Positions 52,147 to 60,488 are shown, counted from the first letter of the stretch. The stretch: DNA of 64,000 nt from Alphaproteobacteria bacterium (GCA_041584475.1 JBFHDX010000007.1:248-64247); one strand, 5' to 3'. Notes: a model not told the origin generated them from the letters alone. A program made the numbers and translations.

Positions 52147-52407
52147 CGCTCGTCCCCAAATGTCCCGTCCACCGCCCTCCGGCCCTGAGCAGGGGCGGGG
52201 CACCGTCATATCGCCGCACATCATGCGGCAGTTCCAGCGCCGGGCGCCGCCCGTCGCAACCGGAACCCGGCGGCGGGCATCGGTGCTGCCCGGCGCGGCT
52301 CTATACAGGAAGCCTCGCGCGATTGCAAGGCCGGGCGAGCGGCCGCCTGCCCCCTTGCCTTGCGCGCGGGCTTGTGCAATCTGGCCGCACACAAAGGTCG
52401 GGTAACG

Positions 52408-54249
52408 ATGACCCTGCGCCACCCCACATATGTCGACGCGCGGCTCAAGGAAGAGCGGGAAGCCACGCGCGACCTGCGGACGCTCGTCGCATTGCTGCGG
52501 TTCGTCCGCCCCTACTGGCCGGCGGCTGTCGGCGCGGGCGTCGCGCTCGTCGTCGCCGCGGCGACGGTGCTGGCGCTCGGACAGGGTCTGCGGGCCCTCG
52601 TCGACAAGGGGTTCCGCAGCGGCGACGTGGCGCTGCTCGACACCGCGTTGCTCGTCCTGCTGATCGTCATCGTCGTCCTCGCCGTCGCGACCTACAGCCG
52701 CTTCTACCTCGTGTCGTGGATCGGCGAGCGCGTCGTCACCGATCTGCGGCGCGCCGTCTTCGACCATGTCGTCGGGCTGAGTCCCGGCTTTTTCGAGGTC
52801 ACCCGGACCGGCGAGATCCTCTCCAGACTGACGACCGACACGACGCTTCTGCAGGTCGTGATCGGATCCTCGGCCTCGGTGGCGCTGCGGAATTTCCTGC
52901 TTTTCTGCGGCGCGACCGCAATGCTCGCGATCACAAGCCCGAAGCTGACCGGTTTGGTGTTTCTCTTCGTGCCGCTCGTCGTCGCGCCCATCGTGATCTT
53001 CGGTCGCCGCGTGCGTCGCCTCAGCCGCGAAGCGCAGGATCGCGTGGCCGACCTGTCCGCCCATGGCGACGAAGCCCTGCACGCCGTGCGCATCATGCAG
53101 GCCTACACCCACGAGGACCTGGACCGACGTCGATTTGGATCGCTGGCGGAGACGGCGTTCGCCACCGCCGTGCGCCGGGTGCGGATGCGGGCGCTGCTCA
53201 CCGCGGTCGTGATCATGCTCGTTTTCGGGGCGGTCGGGACGATCCTGTGGATCGGCGGCCACGACGTCATCGCCGGGCGGATCACGGCCGGCGACCTGTC
53301 GGCCTTCGTCTTCTACGCGGTCGTCGTCGCCGGCTCGGTCGGCGCGATCTCCGAGGTGATCGGCGACGTGCAGCGCGCGGCAGGCGCGGCGGAGCGCCTG
53401 CTCGATCTGCTCGCGACCGCGCCGGAGATCTCGGCCCCCGAAAATCCGCGGCCGCTGCCGGAGCCGCCGCGCGGCGAGGTCCGGTTCGAGGCCGTCCGCT
53501 TCCACTACCCCGCGCGTCCCGAACTGCCGGCGCTCGACGGCCTCGATCTCACCGTCGCGCCGGGCGAGACGGTCGCGCTGGTCGGCCCGTCCGGCGCCGG
53601 CAAGACCACGGTGCTGCAGCTCGTGCTGCGCTTCTACGACCCGGACGGCGGGACGGTGCGCGTCGACGGCATCGACGTGCGCGACACCGACCCGGCGGCG
53701 CTGCGCCGACGATTCGCGCTCGTCCCCCAGGAACCGGTGATCTTCGCCGCCAACGCCTGGGACAACATCCGCTACGGCCGACCCGGTGCGAGCGACGAGG
53801 AGGTGCGCGCGGCGGCGCTGGCCGCGGCGGCCGGCGAATTCCTCGACCGCTTGCCGGACGGCTTCGACAGCCATCTTGGCGAGCGCGGCGTGCGGCTGTC
53901 GGGTGGCCAGCGCCAACGCATCGCGATCGCCCGCGCCATCCTGCGCGACCCGGCGATTCTGCTGCTCGACGAGGCCACCAGCGCCCTCGACGCGGAGTCG
54001 GAGCGTCTCGTGCAGGTCGCGCTCGACACGCTGATGCGCGGCCGCACGACGATCGTCATCGCGCACCGGCTGGCGACGGTCCTCAAGGCGGACCGTATCG
54101 CCGTGATGGATCATGGCCGCATCGTCGACCAGGGGACGCATCACCAGCTCGTCGAGGCCGGCGGGCTCTATGCGCGGCTCGCCAAGCTCCAGTTCGACCA
54201 GGGCCGGGCGCTCGGATCGCGGCCGGACGACGCGGCGGTCGCGGAATAG
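52408..54249 (+). CDS. ABC transporter, fused permease/ATPase (MsbA/Atm1-like exporter)
   Basis: This is ORF 52360..54249, with the ATG at 52408 preferred. It has a 6-TM domain, then Walker A (GPSGAGKTT), the signature LSGGQRQR and Walker B ([12 protein letters not shown]). Confidence 0.9.
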
Positions 54250-54288: not shown

Positions 54289-55671
54289 TCAGCAGCGTGG
54301 CCGGAGGATAACCCTGAGCCCGTGGCGTGGTCGCAGGGTGATCGCCGGCTCCGGCGTCACCGTCTGCCCGGCGACCGGTACCACGCGGTAGCGGCCGGCG
54401 ATCATGGCGAGGATCAGCTGCCCTTCCATCATGCCGAAGCGCTTGCCGAGGCAGTTGCGCGGGCCGCCGCCGAACGGGATGTAGGCGTAACGCGACCGTT
54501 GGGCGACGGCCTGCGGCGAGAACCGCTCGGGGTCGAAGCGTTCGCTGTCGGGCCAGAATTCCGGGTGACGGTGCAGCACGTAGGGCGAAATCATCACGGT
54601 GGTGCCGGCCGGGACGTCGGTGTCGCCGATCCGGTCGTCGGCGATCGCGGCGCGCGAAATCGTCCATACCGGCGGGTAAAGACGCATCGCCTCTTCGAAG
54701 ACCATGCCGGTATAGCGCAGTTTCGGGAGGTCGGCGAAGGTCGGCGGGCGAAAGCGGAGGACCTCGTCGATCTCGGCGTGCAGCCGTGCCTCGATATCGG
54801 GGTGCTGCGCCAGCAGGTGCCAGGTCCAGGCCAGCGCCACGGCGGTCGTCTCGTGACCGGCGACGAGGAACGACAGCAACTGGTCGCGCAGCAGTTCGCG
54901 GCCGCTCCGTGTCGACGGGTCACAAGCGTCGATCAGCATGTCGAACAGGTCGGCCGATGCCCGGGGCCGCGCGACACGCTCGTCGATCAGGCCATAGATG
55001 ACGCGGTCGATCTCCTCGACCGCGTCGCGGTAGCGCCGGTTGATACGCTTCAGCAGGCCGTGCGACAGCAGCCCGCCGGTCCAGACCGACTGTTCGGCGT
55101 GGCGGAACACCAGCGTCACCGCGTCGTGGAAGGCGTCGTAGCGACGTTCCTCCATGTGCAGGCCGAGCAACGCGCTGGCGACGCCCTCGAACGTGACCCG
55201 CATCATCTCGCGCGCGACGTCGAAATCGCCGTTGGCGTCGTCCGCCGACGGCCAGTGCTGCATCCGCCGCTCGGTCGCCGCGACGATCTGCCGGGCCATC
55301 TCGTCGAACCTGTGGCCCGAGAAGGCCGGCGTCGCCGATCGCCGCTGACGCACCCACTCGTCGCCCTCGCTGACGAAAATTCCGCGGCCGAGCAGCGGCT
55401 TGAGAGGCTCGTAGAACTTGCTCTTCCGGTAGTTCGTGTGGTTGTCCTGCAGGACGTGCTTGATGTCTTCAGGGCGCGCCAGCATGACGATCGTATCGAG
55501 ACCGACCCGAAACCAGACGACGTCGCCATACTTTCGCCGTGCCTTGACGAAATAGCCGAGGGGGTCCGAGCGCACGGCGCGCGCGACCCCGAAGATCGGC
55601 ACGCCGCGCGGACCCGGTCTCGCAACCCGCGTGTCGCGCCGACGCGTTTTCGCCTTGACCGGCGCTACCAT
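54289..55671 (-). CDS. cytochrome P450 (E-class, CYP4/CYP102-like features)
   Basis: 460 aa with the PGP hinge (RPGPRGVPIFG), the I-helix AGHETT, ExxR (EEAMR) and the haem loop FGGGPRNCLGKRFG. Confidence 0.9.
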   Translation of the reverse strand: MVAPVKAKTRRRDTRVARPGPRGVPIFGVARAVRSDPLGYFVKARRKYGDVVWFRVGLDTIVMLARPEDIKHVLQDNHTNYRKSKFYEPLKPLLGRGIFVSEGDEWVRQRRSATPAFSGHRFDEMARQIVAATERRMQHWPSADDANGDFDVAREMMRVTFEGVASALLGLHMEERRYDAFHDAVTLVFRHAEQSVWTGGLLSHGLLKRINRRYRDAVEEIDRVIYGLIDERVARPRASADLFDMLIDACDPSTRSGRELLRDQLLSFLVAGHETTAVALAWTWHLLAQHPDIEARLHAEIDEVLRFRPPTFADLPKLRYTGMVFEEAMRLYPPVWTISRAAIADDRIGDTDVPAGTTVMISPYVLHRHPEFWPDSERFDPERFSPQAVAQRSRYAYIPFGGGPRNCLGKRFGMMEGQLILAMIAGRYRVVPVAGQTVTPEPAITLRPRHGLRVILRPRC

Positions 55672-55916
55672 CCTCCGGACCCGCGGTCGTTCCCGCTCGA
55701 ACGCGATGATTTCTCGGCCCGACGCGCCGGATCGAACGGGATCACCATGCAGTCGCTGCGTTTCCCCTCGTAGACCTTCATCGCCTCGGCGGCGACGCCG
55801 ATGAAGTGGGCCGGAAAAAGCCAGCCATGGGCGACCGCCTCGTCATACAGATATCGGAGGGCCTGGCGAAACGCCTCCGGGGTGCATTCGGTGAACGCCC
55901 CGTCGTCTTGCTCCAT
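55665..55916 (-). CDS. small hypothetical protein between luxI and the P450 gene
   Basis: 83 aa. Third-position GC is high and consistent with coding. Its stop overlaps the P450 start by 7 nt. I recognise no family. Confidence 0.5.
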   Translation of the reverse strand: MEQDDGAFTECTPEAFRQALRYLYDEAVAHGWLFPAHFIGVAAEAMKVYEGKRSDCMVIPFDPARRAEKSSRSSGNDRGSGGW

Positions 55917-55973
55917 GATTTCGTTCCTTGCTGTACGGTCCTCGTTTCGGATTTCCCTCGCCGTCGCGGTTTG

Positions 55974-56612
55974 CTACGCAGCCTGCGTTACGAGCCACGG
56001 CGCGCTGCGGATCACCGAGCCGGTTATGCCGTTGGCGCGCCGGATCTTTTCGAGCGCCTGCTCATTGATGTAGAAGCGGCCGGCCAGGGTCACGGTCCCG
56101 TCGATCAGGTGCCGCCGACTCTGCCATTGCGGGTGGCAGCCGATGCGCGGCAGCAGCCGCGCGATACGGCCGTCGTAGACTGTAACCACCTCGCGCAGGC
56201 CCAGCGCGAGACCGAACTCCACGACGGCACAGAAGATCTCCGCGGTCACCTTGCCCGGCGTTCCGAGGCCGTTCCTGCGGTGCCTGCTGCAGTCGACGGC
56301 GAAACGGCTGCCCTCCCAGATTTTCGGGTTCGCCGGGGCGGGGTCGCCGTCGAGCAGCTGCGGAAAGACGTCGCGCAGCATGTAGGGCCCGACGGTCGGC
56401 AGCATGCGCCACGTGCCGACAAGCTCGCCGTTGTCGTTATTGGCCAGTAGGTAGAGCGGATTGAGATCGTCGAAGCTGTCGTGCTCCTTGTCGCCGCGCG
56501 TCGAGACGCGCCACGCGAGGCGTTCGTGGAACACCCGGTAGCGCAAGCGGAACATCGCCTCGAGCATGGCTGGATAATTGTTCAGTTCGCTCCGCGACAC
56601 GACGTCGATCAT
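55974..56612 (-). CDS. luxI: acyl-homoserine-lactone synthase (LuxI family)
   Basis: The start is at MIDVVSRSELNNYPAMLEAMFRLRYRVFHERLAWRV. It also has DSFDD, PTVGPYMLRDVFPQLL and WEGSRFAVD, which are LuxI/TraI-type motifs. The symbol is family-level only. Confidence 0.9.
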   Translation of the reverse strand: MIDVVSRSELNNYPAMLEAMFRLRYRVFHERLAWRVSTRGDKEHDSFDDLNPLYLLANNDNGELVGTWRMLPTVGPYMLRDVFPQLLDGDPAPANPKIWEGSRFAVDCSRHRRNGLGTPGKVTAEIFCAVVEFGLALGLREVVTVYDGRIARLLPRIGCHPQWQSRRHLIDGTVTLAGRFYINEQALEKIRRANGITGSVIRSAPWLVTQAA

Positions 56613-56657
56613 CTGCCCCTCCGCGCTTGACCACGCGCTGCGATTGGAGCCGCAAAT

Positions 56658-56689
56658 CGAAATCGGGGCATTCCCCCGAAATCGGGGGG
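56658..56689. promoter_or_regulatory. two direct copies of CGAAATCGGGG spaced 19 bp, upstream of luxI (candidate LuxR-type operator)
   Basis: The copies lie at 56658-56668 and 56677-56689. An inverted third copy (CCCCCGATTTCC) is at 57723-57734, upstream of luxR. Confidence 0.35.
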
Positions 56690-56739
56690 TTGCCCGCACG
56701 TCCTCTCTCTTCGTGGATGGGCCCGCTAAGTGCCGGGAA

Positions 56740-57474
56740 TCAGGGTACGATTATGCCCAGGATGATGGCTTTGACGACCGCGTGCGTCTTGCTGTAGACG
56801 CCCAGCTTGCGCGCCGCGGACTTCAGATATTCGGCGACGGTTTCCTGCGACAGCGACAGGATCTCCGAGATCTCCCAGACCGTCTTGCCGCGCGACGACC
56901 AGAGGAGGCATTCGCGCTCGCGCGGGGCAAGCAGAATGGGCTCCTCGCCGCGTGCCATCAGGACGTGATCGACCACCGACTGGTGACTGTACATGGCCGT
57001 CAGATGAATCGAATGCCGTTGTGCATCGCAGAACCGCTCGAAGTCGTGCGGCGCCATGTCGGCGACGAAATTGAATGTCGCGAGGCACTGGCCCGGGCCA
57101 TGGGCCGGCACCGTGATACCCTGGCTCAGCCCGAACTCTCCGGCTTCGTTGAAGAATTTCTCCCATTTCGGGTTCTTGCGCCGGCCGTGCCGCAGCGACG
57201 GCCACGAGAAGGGCAGCACGGTCGCCGAAGCGAGCGGCGCGATCGGGTCGATGTTGACGTATTCGTGCTCGATATAGTGGTTGACCCATTCGCTCGGATA
57301 ATTCGACAGGAAGAAACGCTTCCGCGGACCTTCCGGCGGCCGCACCACGTGGTACGTGAATTTCTCGAAGCCGAGGCCCCGCACCTGGGCTTCGATGGCC
57401 TGATAGATGTCGTCAAGGGAACGGGCCGCCCGAATCGACTCGATGAACTGATCCAGTTGTTGCATCGAAGACAT
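56740..57474 (-). CDS. luxR: LuxR-family autoinducer-binding transcriptional regulator
   Basis: The start is at MSSMQQLDQFIESIR (alternative start at 57516). It has an AHL-pocket pattern (YPSEWVNHYIEHEYVNIDPI) and a C-terminal HTH (LAPRERECLLWSSRGKTVWEISEILSLSQETVAEYLKSAARKLGV). The symbol is family-level only. Confidence 0.9.
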   Translation of the reverse strand: MSSMQQLDQFIESIRAARSLDDIYQAIEAQVRGLGFEKFTYHVVRPPEGPRKRFFLSNYPSEWVNHYIEHEYVNIDPIAPLASATVLPFSWPSLRHGRRKNPKWEKFFNEAGEFGLSQGITVPAHGPGQCLATFNFVADMAPHDFERFCDAQRHSIHLTAMYSHQSVVDHVLMARGEEPILLAPRERECLLWSSRGKTVWEISEILSLSQETVAEYLKSAARKLGVYSKTHAVVKAIILGIIVP

Positions 57475-57722
57475 CGTCGGCACCTCCGCCGCAGATGTAC
57501 GCAACGATTCCGTCATGGCAGCCACTACACCCTGGTATCCGGTCGCAGCGCGCTCTTCGCGCTCTGGACGCCACCCCGCGTCGTGCACGTCTGGAGGCCT
57601 TCCGGTCTCGTGCGCAGCGGTCGGTCGTTCGCGGTAACGCGCCGAACGACAAGGTCCGCGGGCCGGTAAGCCCACTCACTGCCCGTACTATCGATCAATT
57701 CACAATGCCCTTGCCGAAGCGT

Positions 57723-57914: not shown

Positions 57915-59339
57915 TCAGCGTTGCGTCAGCTTCAGTTCGATGCGCCGGTTGCGCGCGTACGCGTCCGGCGTGTTGGTGGGATCGAGCGGCTGGTACTCGG
58001 CATAGCCTGTCGCCGCGAGGTTGCGCGCCGGTATTCCCTGCAGCTGCAGAAAGCGAACGACCGAGATCGCCCGGGCCGTCGACAGCTCCCAGTTGGACGG
58101 AAACTGCTCAGTCCGGATCGGATTCCTGTCGGTATGGCCGTCGACCTGCAGGATCCAGTCGATGTCCTTGGGAATCCGGCCGGCGATGTCGATCAGGGTG
58201 CGCGCCAGCGCCCCCAGCTGCTCCTTGCCGGCCTGGCCGAGCTCGGCTTCCCCGGAAGCGAACAGCACCTCGGACTGGAACACGAAGCGGTCGCCGACGA
58301 TACGGATGTCCTGACGGTCGCCGAGCACATCGCGCAGGCGGCCGAAGAATTCGGAGCGGTAGCGGGACAGTTCCTGCACCTTGCTGGCGAGTGCCGCATT
58401 GAGCCGCGATCCGAGGTCGGCGATCTGCGCTCTCTGCTCCTTGTCCCTCGCTTCCGAGGCCTCCAGCGCCTCGTTGAGCGCGGCGATCTGGGCGCGCAGC
58501 TGCGACAGCTGACGGTTCAGGAGGGCCAGCTGGGCCTTGGCCGCGGCCGAGATCTCGCGCTCGCGCAGCAGCTCCTCCTCTCCGGTCTTCGTCTTTCGCA
58601 TCATCTGCTGCAGCTGTTGTTCCAGCTCCTCGCGGTACGCCTGCATGGCGATGATATCCTGGCGCAACTCGGCAAGCTCCCTGAGCTGCAGCTCGACCGT
58701 CTCGCGCTCCGTCGTGACCGTCTTGTTCGCCTCCTCCAGCTCCTTCATCCGTCGCGCCAGCTCGGCCGCGCTGTCGGCGTAGGCTTGCTCGCTGCGCGCC
58801 AGCGCCTCCTCGGTCAGGCGGAGCTTCTGCGTCGCCTCCTCGAGCGCCTTCAAGCGCTCTTCCAGCGTCGCCTGCGTCGACGTCAGCTGGCCGCTGCGCT
58901 CGGCGAGCAGGGCCTCGGAGGCCTGCAGCGCCGCGGCCAGACGGCTGCGCTCGGCATCGGAGGAATCGATGCGGTCCTGCAGCTCGGCGACCTGCGACGT
59001 GAGCCGGTCGCGGAGACCGCGCAGCGAGCCCAGCTCGCCGGCGAAGCGGTCTCGTTCGGCGAGCGTGCTCTGGAGTTCCGCGGAGAGCTGGGCGACCGAC
59101 GACTGCAAATCGGCGTTGGCCTCCTGCTCGAGGGCCAGCTGGTTCGCCAGTTCCGCGACCTGCCGGTTGAGCCGGTCGAGCGCCTCGTCGCGCCCGCTGA
59201 GCGCCTCGCTCAGGTAGAACTGGGCGACAACGAAGATCATCAGCAGGAAGATGATGACCATCAGCAGCGTCGCCAGCGCGTCGACGAATCCGGGCCAGAT
59301 GTCGACGGCGTTGCGGCCCCGGCGGGAGAGCGCGGCCAT
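57915..59339 (-). CDS. MotB-like protein: N-terminal TM plug, ~300-aa coiled coil, C-terminal OmpA-type peptidoglycan-binding domain
   Basis: 474 aa. It has WPGFVDALATLLMVIIFLLMIF (MotB-type TM with Asp), a long Q/E/L/A/R heptad-like region, then GHTDRNPI...NWELSTARAISVVRFL. Confidence 0.85.
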   Translation of the reverse strand: MAALSRRGRNAVDIWPGFVDALATLLMVIIFLLMIFVVAQFYLSEALSGRDEALDRLNRQVAELANQLALEQEANADLQSSVAQLSAELQSTLAERDRFAGELGSLRGLRDRLTSQVAELQDRIDSSDAERSRLAAALQASEALLAERSGQLTSTQATLEERLKALEEATQKLRLTEEALARSEQAYADSAAELARRMKELEEANKTVTTERETVELQLRELAELRQDIIAMQAYREELEQQLQQMMRKTKTGEEELLREREISAAAKAQLALLNRQLSQLRAQIAALNEALEASEARDKEQRAQIADLGSRLNAALASKVQELSRYRSEFFGRLRDVLGDRQDIRIVGDRFVFQSEVLFASGEAELGQAGKEQLGALARTLIDIAGRIPKDIDWILQVDGHTDRNPIRTEQFPSNWELSTARAISVVRFLQLQGIPARNLAATGYAEYQPLDPTNTPDAYARNRRIELKLTQR

Positions 59340-59342
59340 GGC

Positions 59343-60488
59343 TCAGGCCTTCTTCGCAGGCTGTCCGGAGGCAGCGGCGACGGTGCGGGCGAGCAAGCGG
59401 ATCTCGCCGCGCAGCTCCTCGAGCGTCTGCGCGCGGCCGGACGATGCCTCCTCGGCGACGCGGGTCAGCGTCTTGTCCATGTTGCGGACCGCCTGGCGGA
59501 TCGCCGGATCGCCGCCGACCGTCTCGGCAAGCTTGCCCAATACCGGTTTGAGCTCCGCCTGCGCCTCCGCCAGCTTGACCAGCAGATGCTGTTCCGAGCG
59601 CATCTGGTCGCCGAGCGCGCTCAACTTTTCGGTGAGTTCCAGCATGTGCCGGTCGGTTGCGCCGCGGTTGGTTTCCGCCTTGCCCATCGTCCGTTCGAGC
59701 CTTTCGAGGCTGTCGGCGGTCTTCTCGAGCAGCGCCTGGATGTAGGCCGGGACCGAGCCCTCGCCCTCGGCGACGATGCCGCCGCTGAGCCGGGTCAGGC
59801 CCGACAGCCAGTCCTCCAGCTCGTTGTAGAAGCGGTTCTGGGCGTGGCCGGCGACCAGGTCCAGGATGCCGAGGGCGAGCGAACCGGCGAGGCCGAACAG
59901 CGACGAGCTGAACGCCGTGCCCATGCCGCCGAGCGGCGATTCGAGGCCGGCCTTGAGGCTCTCGAACATCGCCGTCATGTCGCCGCCGACGCTCAGTTCG
60001 CCGATCACCTGGCCGATCGCGCTGACCGTCTGCAGGAGGCCCCAAAAGGTGCCGAGCAGGCCGAGGAAGATCAGCAGTCCGATCATGTAGCGGGAATATT
60101 CGCGACGCTCGTCGAGCCGCGTCGAGATGCCGTCGAGCAGGGTGCGCATCGCCACCGTCGACAGGCTGAGGCGGCCGCGCGCACGCTCGCTGCGCTCGCC
60201 GAGCATCGTCGCCATCGGCGACAGCAGGCGCGGCACGGCGTCGCTCGAAACCGAGGCCTGGTCGCGCTGGAAGCTCTCGATCCAGTTCACCTCGGGCGCG
60301 AGCGAGCCGACCATTCGCAGCGTGTGCAGCACGCCCATCACGAACACGAAGAGGATGATCCCGTTGATCACCACGTTGGCCATGAAGGCGTCGATCAGGT
60401 CGCCGTAGATCGTCGCGGCGCCGATGCCGGCGATGATGAACCCCAGGATTAGGATCATCCGGGCAAGGAAGCCGCTGGGTCTCGTCAT
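59343..60488 (-). CDS. MotA/TolQ/ExbB proton-channel family protein with a ~170-aa helical C-terminal tail
   Basis: 381 aa with four TM segments and the MotA_ExbB core (IFLGLLGTFWGLLQT...GMGTAFSSSLFGLAGSLALGI). Its stop lies 3 nt before the MotB-like start. Confidence 0.85.
   Translation of the reverse strand: MTRPSGFLARMILILGFIIAGIGAATIYGDLIDAFMANVVINGIILFVFVMGVLHTLRMVGSLAPEVNWIESFQRDQASVSSDAVPRLLSPMATMLGERSERARGRLSLSTVAMRTLLDGISTRLDERREYSRYMIGLLIFLGLLGTFWGLLQTVSAIGQVIGELSVGGDMTAMFESLKAGLESPLGGMGTAFSSSLFGLAGSLALGILDLVAGHAQNRFYNELEDWLSGLTRLSGGIVAEGEGSVPAYIQALLEKTADSLERLERTMGKAETNRGATDRHMLELTEKLSALGDQMRSEQHLLVKLAEAQAELKPVLGKLAETVGGDPAIRQAVRNMDKTLTRVAEEASSGRAQTLEELRGEIRLLARTVAAASGQPAKKA

Follow-up and report, generated by a model that had tools for sequence, protein, structure and literature searches.

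A stretch of 64,000 nucleotides from Alphaproteobacteria bacterium (GCA_041584475.1, JBFHDX010000007.1:248-64247; the whole stretch is called the window below) carries a luxR-luxI quorum-sensing pair followed by two further genes, one for a small protein of 83 amino acids (aa; orf83) and one for a cytochrome P450 (P450; gene cyp). The order luxI-small open reading frame (ORF)-P450 recurs in at least 16 distinct loci, among which P450 identity falls as low as 40% and about six flanking contexts can be told apart, and this recurring four-gene set suggests enzymatic modification of the signal molecule. We hypothesize that luxI, orf83 and cyp form an autoinduced operon, and that the P450 acts on the acyl chain which LuxI uses or installs, giving an oxygenated N-acyl-homoserine lactone (AHL) as the cognate signal; this is the reading that we favour, tentatively and at somewhat less than an even chance. 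LuxI, LuxR and the P450 are each of a known kind, and it is their conserved combination with a new small-protein family that appears to be undescribed. A first-pass annotation of the window had known of no description of a dedicated luxI-linked P450, and full-text literature searches found neither a published luxI-linked P450 nor a tailoring enzyme in a luxI operon. The nearest item is a table of P450s that fall inside antiSMASH 'hserlactone' regions (PMC8197338).

The four genes are a co-oriented unit with operon-like spacing, all on the minus strand. The gene luxR (56740..57474) encodes a LuxR-family AHL-responsive transcription factor of 244 aa (Pfam Autoind_bind, 2e-32, 112 bits; GerE, 4e-14, 52 bits; both above their cut-offs), and luxI (55974..56612) an AHL synthase of 212 aa (Autoind_synth, PF00765; 7e-37, 127 bits versus a cut-off of 24). 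They are followed by orf83 (55665..55916), a small conserved protein without a Pfam or NCBIfam family, and by the gene of a soluble P450 monooxygenase of 460 aa (54289..55671; PF00067, 7.5e-89, 299 bits). Order and coordinates, as obtained from ORF translation and Pfam, are those of the first-pass annotation; in addition, the starts and the lengths of 244, 212, 83 and 460 aa are matched by independent gene calls on metagenome contigs with identical genes. The spacer of 57 nt between luxI and orf83 (55917..55973) holds an AAGGA ribosome-binding site. A scan for terminators found no terminator-like site in this gap, which as RNA folds worse than its shuffles (z = +1.73), so that the earlier claim of a terminator-free spacer stands. 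The orf83 stop and the P450 start overlap by 7 nt, ATGGTAG (55665..55671), read as GGA TGG TAG in one frame and as ATG GTA G in the other; both the spacer length and this overlap, likewise noted before, can be read directly in the sequence, and the overlap suggests translational coupling. The long plus-strand ORFs over the region are the usual antisense ORFs of DNA with 68% G+C. Given this layout, luxI, orf83 and cyp are presumably co-transcribed.

The adjacency of luxI and the P450 gene, first seen in this one genome, is not unique to it, so that the uniqueness which the first-pass annotation had named as a ground for refutation does not hold. The exact window P450 is present on 99 short-read contigs with identical gene order in all of them, and the order is kept in two loci with 67-69% P450 identity (L005 and L007). 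Further out, with P450 identities of 50-52%, luxR-luxI-small ORF-P450 stands amid wholly different neighbours on three unrelated contigs (L088/L089, L090 and L091). Flanking genes across the survey include OmpA-like/ABC exporter, Fer2-MoCoBD/AsnC, malate synthase/MoCF, BBP2_2/DUF2062, HMGL-like/MarR and Rieske/ligases; luxR lies upstream of luxI wherever the contig extends far enough. Further loci were reached through members of the small-protein family: L095-L098 and L100, one of them from a Dongiaceae metagenome-assembled genome (MAG), have luxI upstream and a P450 downstream in all cases, and three short metagenome contigs retrieved by a small-protein profile scan (L092-L094) have the same order. 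A decayed copy, L099 (4734-10447 of a 7.4-Mb contig), carries a DDE transposase/insertion sequence (IS) between luxR and luxI; its luxI is frameshifted, its small ORF shortened and its P450 intact, and the frameshifts might be long-read assembly errors. Spacing is conserved as well: luxI and the small ORF are 10-57 nt apart in ten loci, and the junction of small ORF and P450 lies between -14 and +21 nt in nine out of ten, with +59 nt in L095.

A scan with a P450 profile, run on a single genome for each GTDB species, served as negative control and also supplied one member of the module. It yielded 80 loci among the matches listed, all at 46% identity or less and without close relatives of the window P450. 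The sole carrier of luxI and luxR among these 80 listed loci is L036, a Rhodospirillaceae MAG with 40% P450 identity, in which a small ORF lies in between; neither luxI nor luxR was found within 10 kb of the 79 other P450 loci among the matches listed. In a neighbour-joining tree of 203 P450s, calculated without bootstrap support, all linked members fall into one clade of 55 leaves, and none of the 79 non-linked GTDB P450s is placed inside it. When matrices of pairwise identity are compared among the four proteins (LuxR, LuxI, small protein and P450), they correlate with Spearman coefficients of 0.81-0.91, values inflated by shared phylogeny; we read them as a sign that the four genes are co-inherited as a unit, and as nothing further. 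All carriers are metagenomic and assigned to Alphaproteobacteria, Rhodospirillaceae or Dongiaceae, and their genes bear no annotation beyond 'cytochrome P450' or 'hypothetical protein'. The module is not on the sequenced plasmids of PLSDB, which contains no orf83 homologue and no P450 match that reaches 60% identity (the best listed has 41%).

These results bear on the simplest objection, namely that a P450 and a small ORF came to lie next to a luxRI pair by chance. P450s and luxI are both common in Alphaproteobacteria, and the P450s listed in antiSMASH 'hserlactone' regions (PMC8197338) stand there purely by proximity. Fortuitous adjacency in this genome is nevertheless effectively ruled out by the 16 loci that share the order in differing contexts, by the co-divergence of the four proteins, by the dedicated P450 clade and by a small-protein family seen only at this position; we give it next to no probability.

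The synthase and the receptor look conventional. In LuxI, the segments RYRVFHERLAW, EHDSFDD, WRMLPT and WEGSRFAV match the R/F/W, D..D, R and E-x-S-R positions of LasI, TofI and BjaI, and the conserved S-adenosylmethionine-binding and catalytic residues are kept in all ten module LuxIs. The nearest NCBIfam models are of the TraI type, and the scores against the TraI equivalogs NF052393 and NF010408 (140 and 145 bits) remain below the respective cut-offs of 250 and 292. Similarity is higher to LasI (99 bits) and TofI (87 bits), which use acyl-acyl carrier protein (acyl-ACP), than to the coenzyme A (CoA)-dependent BjaI (70 bits) and RpaI (66 bits). Hints about the acyl donor are thus indirect: the window LuxI is nearer to the ACP-type LasI, TofI and TraI, and extended relatives of the module (see below) carry ligases in the operon. 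LuxR scores well below the NCBIfam cut-off for the TraR equivalog. It aligns end to end with LasR, and the LasR-equivalent residues Y56, W60, Y64, D73, P74, W88 and G113 show no variation among the nine aligned LuxRs of the module; because of the full-length alignment and these invariant hallmark residues of ligand binding, LuxR is, judged by its sequence, a canonical AHL receptor. The pocket residues vary between subgroups when compared to LasR, with some polar substitutions, which we consider too speculative as evidence for a hydroxylated ligand and did not use. The locus shares with LasI/LasR and TraI/TraR a synthase of the Autoind_synth fold with conserved catalytic residues, a receptor that keeps the hallmark AHL-binding and helix-turn-helix residues and, ahead of the synthase gene, a palindromic box with a spacing that would allow positive autoregulation. 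Unlike in these systems, the synthase operon of the window holds two extra conserved genes, those of a novel small protein and of a P450.

The box in question is the palindrome ACCCCCCGATTTCGGGGGAAT (CCCCCGA-TT-TCGGGGG; 56670..56690, minus strand), whose centre lies 68 nt upstream of the luxI ATG. It is single in the window when up to three mismatches are allowed, with 0 matches expected, and no other block is conserved between luxR and luxI in divergent loci. In ten loci a related palindrome precedes the homology-defined luxI start by 67-71 nt, and in L100 by 79 nt; some of these distances were counted by hand. Loci of the Dongiaceae type carry the palindrome CCCACCAGTTCTGGCGGG, which we take to resemble boxes of the las/lux type. 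A lux box is recognised as an inverted repeat of 16-20 bp upstream of the synthase gene and conserved in relatives, and the window palindrome is of this kind; placement of the box at about -42 relative to the transcription start would leave a compatible 5' untranslated region of ~25 nt. No lux-box-like element was found between luxI and orf83. We consider the palindrome a putative site at which LuxR-AHL binds to control the luxI-orf83-cyp operon, and one LuxR-AHL-activated transcript of the three genes would be the simplest reading.

The terminator scan flagged the same palindrome as terminator-like, and its hairpin is real. It could also be the terminator hairpin of luxR and thus have a dual role. 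As an explanation on its own, a luxR terminator was dismissed, the conservation of both sequence and distance to luxI across divergent loci fitting a LuxR box better. An 11-nt direct repeat, CCCCGATTTCG, occurs twice on the minus strand (56687-56677 and 56668-56658); the first copy is part of the palindrome, and the second is not conserved in the closest relative, L005. The called luxI genes of L088 (3889-4560), L090 (3997-4698) and L091 (4062-4763) are longer than that of the window, with products of 223-233 aa. In L088 and L090 the calls begin upstream of the homology-defined start, with the palindrome at or inside the called N-terminus, which probably reflects wrong start calls; the L091 call starts where its homologues do and is longer at the C-terminus.

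The P450 shows the motifs AGHETT, FGGGPRNCLG and EEAMR as well as the PGP hinge in RPGPRGVP, most of which the first-pass annotation had already picked out; the Cys-ligand loop, the ExxR motif and the I-helix positions are invariant among 28 relatives. Its AlphaFold2 (AF2) model has a predicted local distance difference test (pLDDT) score of 88, and the protein is a stand-alone enzyme with a P450 domain only. The best match in the PDB is CYP184A1 from Streptomyces avermitilis (7wzl; 7wzm with oleic acid) at 36% identity and a template modelling (TM) score of 0.86, followed by CYP97, CYP4B1, CYP170A1, CYP3A4 and CYP102. The earlier assignment to the E-class group with CYP4 and CYP102 relatives is borne out, CYP3 being a further relative and the nearest solved structure being the oleic-acid-binding CYP184A1. 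At 36% identity, below the 40% rule, the enzyme does not belong to the CYP184 family, nor is it of the CYP102 type, as it lacks a fused reductase and has only 22-24% identity to BM3 haem domains. Like the window P450, CYP184A1 is a soluble bacterial enzyme, and it was crystallised with oleic acid; it differs in its actinomycete origin, and we know of no link between CYP184A1 and quorum sensing. The literature describes it as an enzyme that metabolises fatty acids and cites it for their epoxidation (PMC11214959). Judged by these relatives, the window P450 could plausibly take a long lipophilic chain as its substrate.

According to the model that we favour, AHL-bound LuxR would bind the palindrome ~68 nt upstream of luxI and switch on a single luxI-orf83-cyp transcript, so that synthase, small protein and P450 would be made together and autoinduced. 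The P450 would then oxygenate, i.e. hydroxylate or epoxidise, the acyl chain installed by LuxI, either on the finished AHL or on an acyl precursor, and the locus would emit – and the cognate LuxR would sense – an oxygenated AHL instead of a plain one. The 83-aa two-helix protein would be an obligatory accessory in this scheme, either as a partner of the P450 or as a feedback factor directed at LuxR. We propose the action of the P450 on the LuxI acyl chain because the P450 clade is found only next to luxI and because the enzyme resembles long-chain fatty-acyl oxidases; it is synteny and family resemblance, then, that suggest a role on the AHL, and the binding of LuxR to the palindrome, the substrate of the P450 and the part played by orf83 are likewise presumed. 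A more specific version is possible, if doubtful: P450 and small protein would be dedicated to tailoring within an AHL 'biosynthetic gene cluster', with a mid-chain or omega hydroxy or epoxy AHL as the true ligand of LuxR.

A first alternative is that the P450 is simply an output of quorum sensing. Here orf83 and the P450 would be induced together with luxI and would leave the signal alone; their substrate would be a different lipophilic compound, for instance a lipid from the environment or a host, a terpenoid or a xenobiotic. Targets commonly adjoin luxI/luxR, one example being ginA downstream of ginI in Komagataeibacter (PMC8102297). Among the relatives of the P450 are oxidases of carotenoids and sesquiterpenes (CYP97, CYP170A1), its best NCBIfam scores are those of albaflavenone and pentalenene oxygenases, and the window module has no enzyme that would chemically tie the P450 to an AHL. 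Such outputs, however, usually vary between lineages, whereas this lone P450, without any scaffold-forming enzyme, stays beside luxI across 40-100% identity and about six contexts and co-diverges with LuxI and LuxR; moreover, the acyl-CoA ligases and the exporter of the extended relatives look like a small pathway around the synthase. We regard a plain output as unlikely, and still as an explanation to be reckoned with.

A second alternative keeps the AHL as the substrate and reverses the purpose. The P450 may oxidise the organism's own AHL to a less active form, a self-limiting turnover that would provide negative feedback or pulse-like signalling. Small genes embedded in luxI/luxR loci, such as rsaL, rsaM and traM, typically encode negative homeostasis factors, and an oxidase within an autoinduced operon has the wiring expected of negative feedback. 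The precedent is CYP102A1 (P450 BM3) of Bacillus (Priestia) megaterium, which hydroxylates AHL acyl chains at subterminal positions (Chowdhary 2007, as cited in PMC12501872) and whose oxidation lowers AHL activity about 18-fold (PMC12501872); the window P450 would be an in-house version of this quenching. Both enzymes belong to the same broad E-class group, CYP102A1 taking long acyl chains, but CYP102A1 is a P450-reductase fusion from a Gram-positive bacterium that produces no AHL and quenches foreign signals, whereas the window P450 is stand-alone and encoded in the producer's own luxI operon. Making and destroying a signal from one transcript would be wasteful, the strict co-divergence of LuxR is better explained if LuxR reads the oxidised product, and the major facilitator superfamily (MFS) exporter and ligases of the relatives suggest production and export. 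We consider turnover decidedly improbable as the function of the P450.

The extended relatives just mentioned form a sister clade or subclade of the module. In L036 (6691-15660), L095 (574-5618), L096 (2060-10288), L097, L098 and L100 (383-5597), the operon runs on past the P450 for two or three more genes, which encode an efflux-type MFS transporter and one or two AMP-forming ligases and are separated by gaps of 3-16 nt or overlap; the best matches of the ligases are long-chain fatty-acid-CoA ligases. A gene for the alpha subunit of a Rieske ring-hydroxylating oxygenase precedes luxR in four loci (L036 and L096-L098). In the decayed L099, only a truncated MFS gene is left downstream of the P450, followed by further IS elements. 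In the window, a search for module-type MFS, ligase and Rieske genes elsewhere yielded nothing beyond generic AMP-binding paralogues, with identities of 23-27% over the full length and, in one partial match, of 36% over 166 residues. The transporter and ligases of the extended operon tie the P450 to acyl-chain metabolism, activation and export around LuxI, and the acyl-CoA ligases make a precursor-side role of the P450 a serious alternative to oxidation of the finished AHL. Along this route, an oxidised acid would be converted to a CoA thioester and passed to LuxI, and we hold this to be a real alternative. The ligases in the luxI operons of the extended relatives suggest an acyl-CoA-fed synthase, as in the CoA-dependent LuxI homologs BjaI, RpaI and BraI; unlike BjaI and RpaI, the window LuxI scores higher against LasI and TofI, and its module has no ligase. 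We know of no description of dedicated ligases and P450s beside bjaI or rpaI, nor of one of a LuxI with its own ligases and exporter.

Several points weigh against an oxygenated AHL as the product of the locus. No need for tailoring enzymes is known in LuxI/LuxR systems, neighbours of luxI are often plain quorum-sensing targets, and the architecture fits signal turnover equally well. With only 36% identity to its nearest characterised relative, the substrate of the P450 is not predictable by homology, and no redox partner is encoded in the module. The ligases of the extended relatives favour a role on the precursor, whereas the minimal form in the window has no ligase, so that the P450 may act either before or after the LuxI reaction. 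To these must be added the qualifications on the survey itself, i.e. the phylogenetic inflation of the Spearman values, the missing bootstrap support of the P450 tree, and the fact that the survey was not exhaustive, which makes the 16 loci a lower bound.

The small protein is the least familiar component. Its family comprises 46 clusters among 5.8 billion proteins and 17 matches among 1.84 billion cluster representatives; the relatives whose sources were looked up are all metagenomic and without an informative name. In every context examined for the family, luxI is located upstream and a P450 downstream, and orf83 belongs, as far as sequence comparison can tell, to a new family seen only at this position. 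A core of ~35 residues, C[TS]PExLxxxLxYLYxEAxxAGxxxPAHFIGVAAEA, is followed by a variable, often charged tail; the homologue in L036 is recognisable by profile comparison only (hhalign probability 81%). The ratio of nonsynonymous to synonymous substitution rates (dN/dS) is 0.05-0.14 over the first 50 codons, which points to purifying selection and identifies orf83 as a real coding gene. The AF2 model (mean pLDDT 66) is a two-helix hairpin with helices at residues 13-29 and 33-49 and a disordered tail. A fold search of the PDB gave no significant match, only helical hairpins with E > 3, and a metal-site idea that arose from ferritin and sulerythrin fold matches was dropped, E26, H37 and E44 not being invariant. 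One family member, P0138 (131 aa, from a Joint Genome Institute metagenome), contains two tandem copies of the conserved two-helix motif, which suggests that the functional unit may be a pair of hairpins and that the single-copy proteins may act as dimers in a four-helix bundle.

With regard to function, the first-pass annotation had weighed an anti-activator against a redox adaptor and remarked on the lack of a ferredoxin-type Cys motif. The latter observation is correct: C11 and C56 are the only Cys residues, neither is conserved across the wider family, and no Pfam domain is present. A ferredoxin or redox adaptor was rejected on these grounds. Two roles may be envisaged: orf83 could be a partner of the P450, for which it is a candidate because it is translationally coupled to the P450 gene, or it could be a feedback factor directed at LuxR. 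TraM is a dimerising two-helix hairpin, and we take the helices of orf83 to be much shorter than those of TraM; no Pfam match, TraM (Prok-TraM) included, was obtained for 29 family members at E values up to 10, and the hairpin of the AF2 model and the tandem motif copies of P0138 speak for a TraM-like role by analogy only. TraM, RsaL, RsaM and GinA resemble orf83 as short proteins encoded within or next to a luxI/luxR pair and induced with the quorum-sensing system, and differ from it in that orf83 is always followed by a P450. GinA of Komagataeibacter intermedius, a protein of 89 aa encoded next to ginI (PMC6695853, PMC8102297), is set beside orf83 by analogy; the matches of the orf83 profile whose sources were looked up are unnamed metagenomic proteins, which speaks only indirectly against a close homology to GinA.

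A different kind of partnership would be that of a ribosomally synthesised and post-translationally modified peptide (RiPP), in which orf83, as a precursor with conserved leader and variable core, would be cross-linked or oxidised by the P450 under quorum-sensing control. The conserved N-terminal part, the variable C-terminal tail, the coupled position immediately upstream of the P450 and a weak NCBIfam match of the P450 to the RiPP enzyme ApyO (4e-46, far below the cut-off) would all be in line with such a pair. The ApyO score, though, is below the scores of terpenoid P450s, and the minimal module has no conserved peptidase or exporter. The terminal Trp of orf83 in the window subgroup is conserved because the ATGG of the start/stop overlap forces it, not because of function, and the C-terminal tails of other subgroups are unrelated and non-aromatic (...STEGH, ...GTGS, ...NGSR and ...PHDA). 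Without a conserved aromatic core, and with tails that differ between subgroups, the precursor reading was discarded as very improbable.

AHL diversity is currently explained by the choice of acyl-ACP or acyl-CoA by LuxI. If the model of an oxygenated AHL is true, this would be, to our knowledge, the first AHL structural diversity to come from a dedicated oxidase encoded with the synthase, beyond the synthase's choice of acyl donor. A conserved P450 encoded with the synthase would put a second layer on top of this, be it tailoring of the producer's own signal or its programmed inactivation, and the predicted AHL structures may escape standard biosensors and targeted liquid chromatography-mass spectrometry methods. 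With four genes and a candidate operator, the module is compact enough for a direct test by heterologous expression. The known carriers are all uncultured Alphaproteobacteria (Rhodospirillaceae, Dongiaceae), a case of signalling chemistry that can be mined from metagenomes, and the 83-aa protein may represent a novel class of modulators of quorum sensing or of P450 accessories. Should the P450 turn out to be no more than an output of quorum sensing, what remains is a conserved neighbour within a regulon, of modest interest.

Directly upstream of luxR (57915-60488, minus strand) lie genes for a 474-aa OmpA/MotB-family protein with a long coiled-coil and for a 381-aa MotA/ExbB-like protein; synteny of the OmpA-like gene extends to L005. 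The OmpA-family protein GmpA of Komagataeibacter is a target of GinA, the small protein encoded next to luxI, and the parallel with the OmpA-like neighbour in the window is probably a coincidence. On the other side, an ATP-binding cassette (ABC) exporter of 629 aa (ABC_membrane and ABC_tran; 52360-54249, plus strand) converges on the P450, the two stop codons being 39 nt apart. In L001-L004 and L007 it is likewise the neighbour of the P450, there with overlapping 3' ends; because it is absent from the more distant modules, it is probably a mere chromosomal neighbour. No tRNA gene and no Rfam family at the gathering threshold was detected in the window (1-64000). The G+C content is 63-72% throughout, and the module from luxR to the P450 shows no compositional break.

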